From a virus (Duplodnaviria; Heunggongvirae; Uroviricota; Caudoviricetes): a stretch of DNA of 44,740 nt. The stretch spans positions 1-44,740 of the IMG/VR virus record IMGVR_UViG_3300009169_000014; one strand, 5' to 3'. A program made the translations under genes and the position numbers. Below, in pieces: positions 8,259-8,756 of the stretch. A model generated the notes under the pieces. The model did not search any database. It had not been told where the DNA came from and saw only the letters and a program-made list of their open reading frames with translations. Within the stretch, counting starts at the first letter, position 1. Each line of letters starts with the position of its first letter.

Positions 8259-8271
8259 TCTCAAGAGCGCC

Positions 8272-8300
8272 AGTCACCGTAGTGGTGACTTCTTCTTGTT
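8272..8300 (+). terminator. intrinsic terminator, stem agtcacc/ggtgact with GTAGT loop + TCTTCTTGTT
   Basis: 7-bp stem; loop GTAGT shared with hairpins at 8455, 8640, 12970. Confidence 0.55.
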
Positions 8301-8336
8301 GGCCCTAGGCCAAATCTGCCCGAGCCGGAGATGTCG

Positions 8337-8355
8337 TCCGCCGGCGCCGGGCGGA
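8337..8355 (+). other. hairpin tccgcc-ggcgccg-ggcgga
   Basis: 6-bp GC stem in non-coding region. Confidence 0.4.
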
Positions 8356-8391
8356 GACCACGAATCAAAGTAATCGCTGTTGTCGAGCACA

Positions 8392-8408
8392 GGCCGCCAC
8401 GGGCGGCT
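8392..8408 (+). other. hairpin ggccgcc-acg-ggcggc
   Basis: 6-7 bp GC stem, 3-nt loop. Confidence 0.4.
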
Positions 8409-8454
8409 CACCGCACCAAGTAGACACGCCAATCAGCAAACGGCAGTTGCCAGC

Positions 8455-8471
8455 GTCTCCGTAGCGGAGAC
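8455..8471 (+). other. hairpin gtctcc-GTAGC-ggagac (GTAGY loop family)
   Basis: 6-bp stem; loop and closing CC/GG identical to hairpins at 8272, 8640, 12970 with compensatory stem changes. Confidence 0.45.
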
Positions 8472-8491
8472 ATTAGCTCGCTGGACTTCGT

Positions 8492-8514
8492 CCAATTTGA
8501 TCAGATCAAATTGG
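8492..8514 (+). promoter_or_regulatory. 23-bp perfect AT-rich palindrome ccaatttgatc-a-gatcaaattgg; candidate protein-binding operator/origin element
   Basis: perfect 11-bp inverted repeat around a central A; AT-rich in a ~63% GC genome; contains two GATC. Confidence 0.45.
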
Positions 8515-8639
8515 TGTCCGAACTCCAAGCCCGAGTTTCGAGTGCCCTGGATGTTTCCAGGCTGCAGCCCGAGCTCACCTGGTAGGATCCACCGAACCAA
8601 GTGATTCAAGCGTGAACTAGCTTCGATTTTTAGATCGAC

Positions 8640-8670
8640 GCCTCCGTAGTGGAGGCAGTTGTTTTTACTG
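8640..8670 (+). terminator. intrinsic terminator, stem gcctcc/ggaggc with GTAGT loop + AGTTGTTTTTACT
   Basis: 6-bp stem, GTAGT loop, T-run. Confidence 0.55.
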
Positions 8671-8704
8671 GCCGAGCCAGTGCCGAAGGGGTTTTCACCG
8701 ACGG

Positions 8705-8721
8705 ATGTCCGGCCCGGACAT
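8705..8721 (+). other. 17-bp perfect palindrome atgtccgg-c-ccggacat
   Basis: 8-bp inverted repeat 36 nt upstream of 8757 gene. Confidence 0.4.
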
Positions 8722-8756
8722 TCCCTAAGTAGTCCACGCGTAACAAAGGAGGAGTC

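Follow-up and report, generated by a model that had tools for sequence, protein, structure and literature searches.

The phage DNA analyzed here, a stretch of 44,740 nt from IMG/VR record IMGVR_UViG_3300009169_000014 (hereafter the window), contains a gene-free gap of 498 bp at 8259-8756, with a gene for a 75-aa protein on its 5' side and a gene for a DUF3846 protein on its 3' side. The layout of the window, small + strand genes from 1 to 14.9 kb and - strand structural genes in the remainder, suggests a section of a large phage genome. The gap holds three tandem copies of one module on the + strand, which is specific to a clade of ~190-kb uncultivated phages (Table 1). Whatever its role, it is very probable that the gap is a conserved array of structured RNA modules. 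The two flanking genes of the initial annotation are real: the downstream product has a strong Pfam match, and the upstream product is conserved, its C-terminal 13-36 residues, the part covered by the search, being 70-100% identical in 9 of 12 relatives (tblastn).

The gap holds 10 perfect stem-loops, defined as a stem of at least 6 bp with a loop of 0-8. Dinucleotide-preserving shuffles of the gap have a mean of 0.85 and a maximum of 5, with 0/500 reaching 10, and the window average is ~1.5 per 500 bp. All eight hairpins and palindromes listed in the initial annotation are present: the two terminator-like hairpins (A1 and A3), three GC hairpins (B1, C1 and D), a hairpin with a GTAGC loop (A2), a 23-bp perfect palindrome with GATC at 8499 and 8504, and a 17-bp perfect palindrome (C3) 25 nt 5' of the AAGGAGG Shine-Dalgarno sequence of the DUF3846 gene. 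It had overlooked two further perfect hairpins (8546-8561 and B3), as well as the loop common to A1, A2 and A3, the long-range helices, and the threefold repeat of one module. For the string CCGTAGYGG, 0.58 occurrences are expected in the window and four are observed, 4/4 of them on the + strand. Both strands of the gap fold better than shuffles (z = -3.6 for the + strand, -5.2 for the - strand), so folding energy alone cannot choose the strand.

Modules 1 and 3 share a common plan. Their closing helix encloses, from 5' to 3', an optional small hairpin, the GUAG hairpin and, set off by a spacer rich in pyrimidines, a small hairpin with a CUA or CGA triloop; a second spacer then leads to a GC-rich hairpin. 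The order in module 2 is the same, with the 23-bp palindrome replacing the third hairpin and a variable tail after it. The GUAG hairpin consists of a 6-bp stem and a pentaloop with the consensus 5'-GYCNYC GUAGY GRNGRC-3'.

Table 1. Features of the module array, its surroundings in the window, and module arrays of related phages.
Feature	Position	Strand	Details
tRNA cluster	6528-6831		ARAGORN
75-aa gene	8031-8258	+	final codons and stop codon supply the 5' side of the closing helix of module 1
Module 1	8251-8377	+	closing helix GCGAUUA (8251-8257) with UAAUCGC (8371-8377)
Module 1 flank helix	8262-8267 with 8293-8298	+	
Hairpin A1	8272-8290	+	AGTCACC-GTAGT-GGTGACT, then TCTTCTTGTT; U-rich tail 8291-8301
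Hairpin B1	8299-8313	+	triloop
Hairpin C1	8337-8355	+	GC hairpin
Linker	8378-8430	+	
Hairpin D	8393-8407	+	GC hairpin in linker
Linker motif	8420-8429	+	GUAGACACGC
Module 2	~8431-8606	+	candidate closing helix AAUCA (8431-8435) with UGAUU (8602-8606)
Module 2 small hairpin	8442-8451	+	
Hairpin A2	8455-8471	+	GUAG hairpin, no U tract
Hairpin B2	8482-8494	+	triloop
23-bp palindrome	8492-8514	+	core TGATCNGATCA
Hairpin of variable segment	8546-8561	+	3' part of module 2
Module 3	8610-8739	+	closing helix GCGUGAACUA (8610-8619) with UAGUCCACGC (8730-8739)
P1a	8623-8638	+	
Hairpin A3	8640-8656	+	GCCTCC-GTAGT-GGAGGC, then AGTTGTTTTT; U tract 8657-8666
Hairpin B3	8667-8681	+	triloop
Hairpin C3	8705-8721	+	17-bp palindrome
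Shine-Dalgarno AAGGAGG	8746-8752	+	of the DUF3846 gene
DUF3846 gene	8757-9062	+	Pfam PF12957, 7e-24; first gene 3' of array
Solitary module	12946-13073	+	closing helix CCCUCA (12946-12951) with UGAGGG (13068-13073)
Solitary GUAG hairpin	12970-12986	+	
Solitary long hairpin	~12999-13047	+	CGA triloop at tip
Array in L035	3004-3979		
Array in L099	~5800-6600	reverse	
Array in L115	~3440-4250		

The gap has close counterparts in other phages, whose contigs are given here by L numbers. Homologs of the DUF3846 protein were drawn from IMG/VR, JGI, ENA and Logan assemblies. The close homologs are 63-89% identical, several are encoded on contigs of 140-196 kb, and all stand behind the same element. 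A gene-free gap of 450-570 nt precedes the DUF3846 gene in every readable relative with at least 63% protein identity except L042, where 1.4 kb, tRNAs included, comes before the gene; in L090, whose DUF3846 protein is 52% identical, just 95 nt does. The gap is conserved upstream of DUF3846 in at least 13 distinct related phage contigs, and its alignment comprises 13 distinct full-length copies and 3 partial ones.

In these alignments the stems of the gap hairpins show paired substitutions and the loops are fixed. The closing helix of module 1, predicted by RNAalifold, is paired in 13/13 sequences (alignment A6) and closed in 8/8 separate minimum free energy (MFE) folds (the window and 7 relatives); it has two double compensatory changes, both in L051 (GCAACUA/UAGUUGC). 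With a hand-drawn structure, module 1 has 89.3% of its alignment cells paired and both sides changed in 11 of 26 pairs, which 0/500 shuffles equal. The corresponding figures for module 3, also hand-drawn (alignment A3, 16 sequences), are 94.8% of cells paired and both sides changed in 12 of 26 pairs; 0/500 shuffles are as good, and slid controls are 31-40% paired. The closing helix of module 3 covaries through a change of G-C to A-U in L041 and of C-G to U-A in L048 and L088, the latter together with a matched deletion of a mismatched pair. Within module 2, double compensatory changes are found in A2, in B2 and in the outer arms of the palindrome (columns 365/375, 366/374, 392/398 and 404/416). 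Of the possibilities offered by the initial annotation, that of a structured non-coding RNA is strongly supported, by stems that covary in 13-16 relatives, by non-Watson-Crick cells of the GUAG hairpin that are all + strand G.U, and by a nonpalindromic loop that is always on the gene strand.

The repeat relationship between the modules is supported by a covariance model, R1, that was built from module 3 only. In almost every relative R1 recovers modules 1 and 2, with E values of 3e-6 to 1e-2 and several of the matches spanning the full model. With filters off, its matches in the window between 8000 and 13300 are 8256-8316 (E=5e-5), 12948-13071 (E=8e-4) and 8443-8539 (E=2.6e-3), 3/3 on the + strand, and the next best has E=0.27. 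Array units in relatives are also recovered, again on the + strand. In an alignment of 42 module copies made with the covariance model, 90% of cells are paired and 22 of 26 pairs covary. The GUAG hairpin contributes 246 Watson-Crick cells, 6 G.U, 0 A.C and 0 other, the G.U pairs being those of the + strand reading, and its loop is nearly invariant (G 41/42, U 42/42, A 42/42, G 41/42, Y 42/42). The 3' flanks of the GUAG hairpin are not conserved between copies, which argues against a repeat with a fixed handle of the kind in an RNA anti-CRISPR or solitary CRISPR repeat mimic.

Not every part of the array is equally constrained. The segment with hairpin D is absent in L044 and L085 and is swapped for different hairpins in L002, L048 and L051, so it is dispensable. 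The linker motif GUAGACACGC is complementary to 8610-8619, and pairing of 8425-8429 with 8610-8614 could, from the sequence, be an alternative to the closing helix of module 3. The candidate closing helix of module 2 is conserved in sequence and does not covary. In L044 and L085 it is a contiguous 9-bp helix, CUUGAAUCA with UGAUUCAAG, that is also the MFE pairing, and L042 and L056 are alike with one mismatch; window-type sequences combine CACGC/GCGUG with AAUCA/UGAUU. The varying closing pairs of module 2 and the alternative pairing of 8610-8614 could be alternative folds or merely duplicated strands. The full-length MFE fold also predicts pairing between 8289-8298, the pyrimidine tract behind A1, and 8743-8753, the purine-rich Shine-Dalgarno region of DUF3846.

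The two perfect palindromes differ in conservation. The inner core of the 23-bp palindrome, TGATCNGATCA, is invariant and may, judging from its sequence, have a role at the DNA level or as a loop sequence. Outside the sub-clade nearest the window, the 17-bp palindrome is not retained as a sequence: other hairpins replace it there, and only within the sub-clade is C3 helical in this register. It thus behaves as an RNA stem and not as a protein-binding site.

The gap is not protein-coding. The ORF at 8380-8604 had been described as of poor coding character, and indeed its reading frame is not conserved in relatives. In tblastn searches all four open reading frames (ORFs) of the gap gave short matches, partly split across frames; DUF3846 aligns end to end in one frame. 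The insertions and deletions in the gap of relatives also include lengths that are not multiples of 3.

The 5' border of the array gives a further indication of what is conserved. Three relatives, L041, L048 and L088, lack the 75-aa gene and keep GCGATTAG, its last 8 nt, right behind a canonical terminator (L041 3430-3500; L048 2460-2550; L088 1960-2050). This terminator is the one found 5' of the 75-aa gene in the window, where the corresponding segment with both terminator and gene is 7975-8258. The retention of these 8 nt without the gene indicates that they are kept for the RNA element and not for the protein. By sequence comparison, this looks like a gain or loss of the 75-aa gene bounded by the RNA element.

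Copies of the module are also found beyond the gap. The solitary fourth copy in the window sits between two other early genes, and its helix starts 1 nt past the upstream stop codon. The UGAGGG strand of its closing helix is the Shine-Dalgarno sequence of the gene starting at 13077, which the helix is modeled to hide. Nine relatives retain this copy in the syntenic position, and in L002 its closing helix shows a compensatory change to CCCUUA/UAAGGG. Tandem arrays of 4-5 modules with a ~200-nt period are present in L035, L099 and L115, directly after genes for DNA polymerase A (polA) and an RNase_T-type exonuclease, and the polA-linked array starts 1 nt past the exonuclease stop codon. The array units are individually orthologous between phages, with conserved 5' halves and variable 3' halves, and array copy number varies among phages. 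The relatives have at least 8 module copies per genome, and all module copies are co-oriented with their flanking genes.

The module does not correspond to a known RNA family. With Rfam 15 at gathering score, only three tRNAs (6528-6751) are found, and no family matches the gap; at E<=10 the region 8100-8900 gives three chance-level matches of 13-16 bits against gathering scores of 45-50. No tRNA or tmRNA is called by ARAGORN in the gap, its calls being confined to the tRNA cluster, and blastn of 7900-9100 against known phages found no match. Exact scans of IMG/VR with CCTCCGTAGTGGAGG and GYCTCCGTAGYGGAGRC returned mostly single chance matches, with several copies only in contigs of the clade, and a 21-mer around A2 had two actinobacterial matches that lack module features and were judged to be chance. 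A hammerhead-like core in CUGAUCAG is unsupported by Rfam. Kissing between the A and B loops (UAG with CUA) was dropped because the B loops vary (CUA, CGA, UUC, UGU). As genome-wide promoter motifs, AAGTAGTCCACGC and GAACACAGTGA show no clustering 5' of genes and are better explained as helix strands. Type III toxin-antitoxin RNAs of the ToxI kind are near-identical tandem repeats of ~34-36 nt followed by a toxin gene. The gap has no such tandem repeat, its modules are 125-180 nt and diverged, and the downstream gene is DUF3846, and a ToxI-like RNA was rejected.

Where 2.9 sigma70-type promoter matches would be expected in 1-15000 on the two strands together, the search found none on the + strand and one on the - strand; a promoter specificity particular to this phage is a possibility. 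A1 and A3 have the make-up of an intrinsic terminator, a GC-rich stem-loop with a U tract directly behind it, and their U-rich tails are retained in most relatives. A2, the solitary hairpin at 12970-12986 and most array copies are not built in this way. The canonical terminators of the window (494, 5272, 6409, 7975) have loops unrelated to GUAG.

We tentatively favor punctuation in cis as the explanation, with the modules marking out early operons for a protein that recognizes the GUAG loop; this is a possible account and not yet a probable one. Judging by position, the modules would be transcribed within rightward operons, and the lack of a + strand sigma70-type promoter in 1-15000 fits read-through transcription. 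Module 1 and the solitary module start at or 1 nt past the upstream stop codon, and the modules end just before or inside the next ribosome-binding site. A dedicated RNA-binding protein or nuclease, of phage or host origin, would recognize the invariant GUAG loop on its covarying stem. Where a U tract follows, in modules 1 and 3, the GUAG hairpin would double as an intrinsic terminator, so that control of termination or read-through at A1 and A3 would be combined with coupling or occlusion at the closing helices. The closing helices would link the region after the stop codon to the region before the ribosome-binding site, with occlusion of the Shine-Dalgarno sequence in the solitary copy. In this way the array would determine how much transcription and translation continues beyond the upstream unit into the DUF3846 operon, and hairpin-capped processed RNAs might be a by-product. 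The regulatory hub of the initial annotation is plausible, by inference.

Several observations weigh against punctuation in cis. Termination is not the common function, since A2, the solitary hairpin and the majority of array hairpins are not followed by a U tract. The closing helix of module 3 ends 7 nt short of the Shine-Dalgarno sequence, without occluding it. For the most part, closing helices are invariant in sequence, and their covariation comes from 1-3 divergent sequences each. The 42-copy alignment was fitted to the model and leans toward structure, a bias from which the MAFFT-based counts for modules 1 and 3 are free. PHROGs and Pfam detect no RNA-binding or RNase partner among the window proteins. 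Arrays of 3-5 modules without ORFs are hard to explain as purely intercistronic devices, and a trans-acting product fits them at least as well.

Such a product is the core of the most serious rival, which we consider somewhat unlikely: the modules would be RNAs of ~125-200 nt cut from the operon transcript, in the manner of tRNA arrays, and would act in trans, for example as a multivalent sponge or decoy or as subunits of a larger RNA assembly. As a sponge, their target would be a host RNA-binding protein, or an RNA-targeting defense nuclease, that recognizes the GUAG hairpin. The ORF-free tandem arrays at two genomic sites, with units orthologous between phages, speak for this rival, as do the closing helix that each unit has of its own, comparable to a tRNA acceptor stem, the number of copies per genome in relatives, and the tRNA cluster, which lies upstream of the element in 9/9 scanned relatives, 1.2-2.2 kb before the DUF3846 start. 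Invariant loops on covarying stems are typical of protein-titrating RNAs. It is weakened by the pairing of the solitary copy with a Shine-Dalgarno sequence, which points to a cis role, and by modules that have diverged one by one instead of being homogenized, with variable 3' halves in the array units; no promoter or processing signal for such an RNA was identified. A more far-reaching version, that of a new class of trans-acting phage RNA arrays that titrate or misdirect a host RNA-binding factor (for example an RNA-targeting defense nuclease or a CRISPR-processing enzyme) or form a higher-order RNA particle, is distinctly unlikely. The gap might instead be a stack of DNA-encoded signals derived from PeSL-like repeated cassettes, namely intrinsic terminators, palindromic operators and a phage-specific promoter of the DUF3846 operon, which is rather unlikely. 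The terminator-like hairpins would be expected of such a stack; the palindrome core is invariant in 13/13 relatives with only the outer arms varying, as would fit a dimeric DNA-binding protein; neighboring gene content varies (the 75-aa gene, the hairpin D segment) as in the hyperplastic regions flanked by PeSLs (PMC4122927); and several motifs resemble relics of gene 3' ends and ribosome-binding sites. However, helices with strands ~120 nt apart covary, which a terminator/promoter cassette does not need, and varying stems with a fixed asymmetric loop are the opposite of a dyad-symmetric protein site. Most GUAG hairpins lack the U tract, and there is no sigma70-like promoter on the + strand. 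Each perfect palindrome occurs once in the window, so they were rejected as repeated operators, and the sequence of the shorter one is not conserved beyond its sub-clade.

The replication origin suggested by the initial annotation, or more generally an extruded-hairpin DNA site such as a single-strand initiation site or a hairpin promoter of the N4 virion RNA polymerase type, is very improbable, even though the inverted-repeat density is very high and a perfect palindrome contains two GATC sites. There is no AT-rich unwinding element (the lowest 100-nt GC in 8200-8800 is 0.49), there are no iterons in the gap (TRF was empty, and the sole direct repeat is an 8-mer present twice), and GATC occurs at the expected frequency. 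Cumulative GC skew at 1-kb resolution rises through 6-13 kb with no reversal at 8.5 kb, in the 44.7 kb visible of a ~187-kb genome, and 100-nt resolution shows no more than a shallow dip local to the gap. On these results a replication origin is not supported. Read with GUAGC as part of a 7-bp stem and a 3-nt loop, the hairpin would resemble N4 early promoters. The count of 6 G.U and 0 A.C nevertheless favors folding of the coding strand, because the G.T wobbles of that strand become A.C mismatches on the template strand, which N4-type promoters use. Each genome has the module at three separate loci, co-oriented with the genes in every case, and 4-5 tandem promoters without intervening genes make no sense. 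N4-type promoters go together with a gene for a giant virion RNA polymerase, and the longest ORF of the window is 839 aa, with 44.7 kb of ~187 kb covered.

Comparison with known systems shows partial likenesses. The PeSLs of T4-type phages are small cassettes of a terminator and a sigma70 early promoter that are defined at the DNA level and serve as recombination points for gene shuffling (PMC2839356, PMC4122927). The modules resemble them as short composite cassettes with a terminator-like stem-loop, repeated intergenically, co-oriented with early genes and near differences in gene presence or absence. They differ in their length of 125-200 nt, closing helices, several covarying hairpins, invariant asymmetric loop and ORF-free tandem arrays, and in having no recognizable sigma70 promoter (+ strand, 7000-10000 and 1-15000). 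GOLLD and ROOL RNAs are often found near tRNA genes, and the element here likewise has a tRNA cluster 1.2-2.2 kb before the DUF3846 start. Like the gap, they are phage-borne non-coding RNAs of several hundred nucleotides with many hairpins and of unknown function (RF01998, RF03087; PMC12286853), but even with E<=10 they match neither in sequence nor in structure, and here a smaller module is repeated in place of a single large fold. As with lambda nut and HK022 put sites, a short hairpin with a sequence-specific pentaloop and a variable stem would be displayed on an early transcript ahead of terminators, and by analogy this suggests read-through control by a loop-binding factor. In contrast to nut, the loop is GUAGY and not a GNRA-like boxB, and a boxA (consensus CGCUCUUA) is missing from the + strand; close to the region its sole approximate match is on the - strand at 8262-8269. 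There are also at least 4 copies in 5 kb instead of one per operon, and two of the copies have this hairpin as their terminator stem. CsrB and RsmZ likewise present one short motif in many hairpin loops along a single transcript, but theirs is GGA and not GUAG, and each GUAG here is embedded in a multi-helix module of 125-200 nt. Finally, A1 and A3 are like intrinsic terminators in having GC-rich stems followed by U-rich tracts, with A1 right behind a gene, yet their loop is invariant in paralogs and orthologs, and other copies have no U tract.

The wider gene content of the window is sparsely annotated. GC content is ~60%, compared with 57% in the gap region. In the tRNA cluster ARAGORN reports Thr-UGU and Gln-UUG on the + strand and two odd calls on the - strand, one with the two-base anticodon 'tt' and one Ile-AAU, of which Rfam confirms 6680-6751 alone. 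A very strong canonical terminator at 6409-6450, an 18-bp stem followed by TTTTTTT, lies just 5' of the cluster, and a gene for a PTH2-like peptidyl-tRNA hydrolase, at 6894-7187 on the - strand, adjoins it (score 23.4 bits, cut-off 23). A search of the literature for DUF3846 found a sole, unrelated mention, and searches of PHROGs and Pfam with 47 proteins from the window and L035 gave almost nothing informative. Among the few proteins that can be annotated is a calcineurin-like metallophosphoesterase (13368-14201, + strand). Weak matches under the cut-off of Pfam are a sigma70 region-4 helix-turn-helix in the protein at 3822-4418 and a C-terminal repeat of a T4 gp5-like spike at 20934-22535 (- strand). 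For most of the structural proteins neither PHROGs nor Pfam gives a match, and the phage lineage is thus poorly charted.

Large uncultivated phages contain much unexplained non-coding sequence, and here part of it proves to be a well-supported family of modular, multicopy structured RNAs that is not in Rfam. The covariance model and the coordinates make the family directly searchable. If the modules are trans-acting arrays, they would join the few phage RNAs by which host factors are manipulated, and a new trans class would be an RNA-based device for counter-defense or takeover and not a cis signal. If instead cis-acting punctuation, the reading that we favor, is correct, the modules would represent a new wiring of early operons in phages without recognizable sigma70 promoters.

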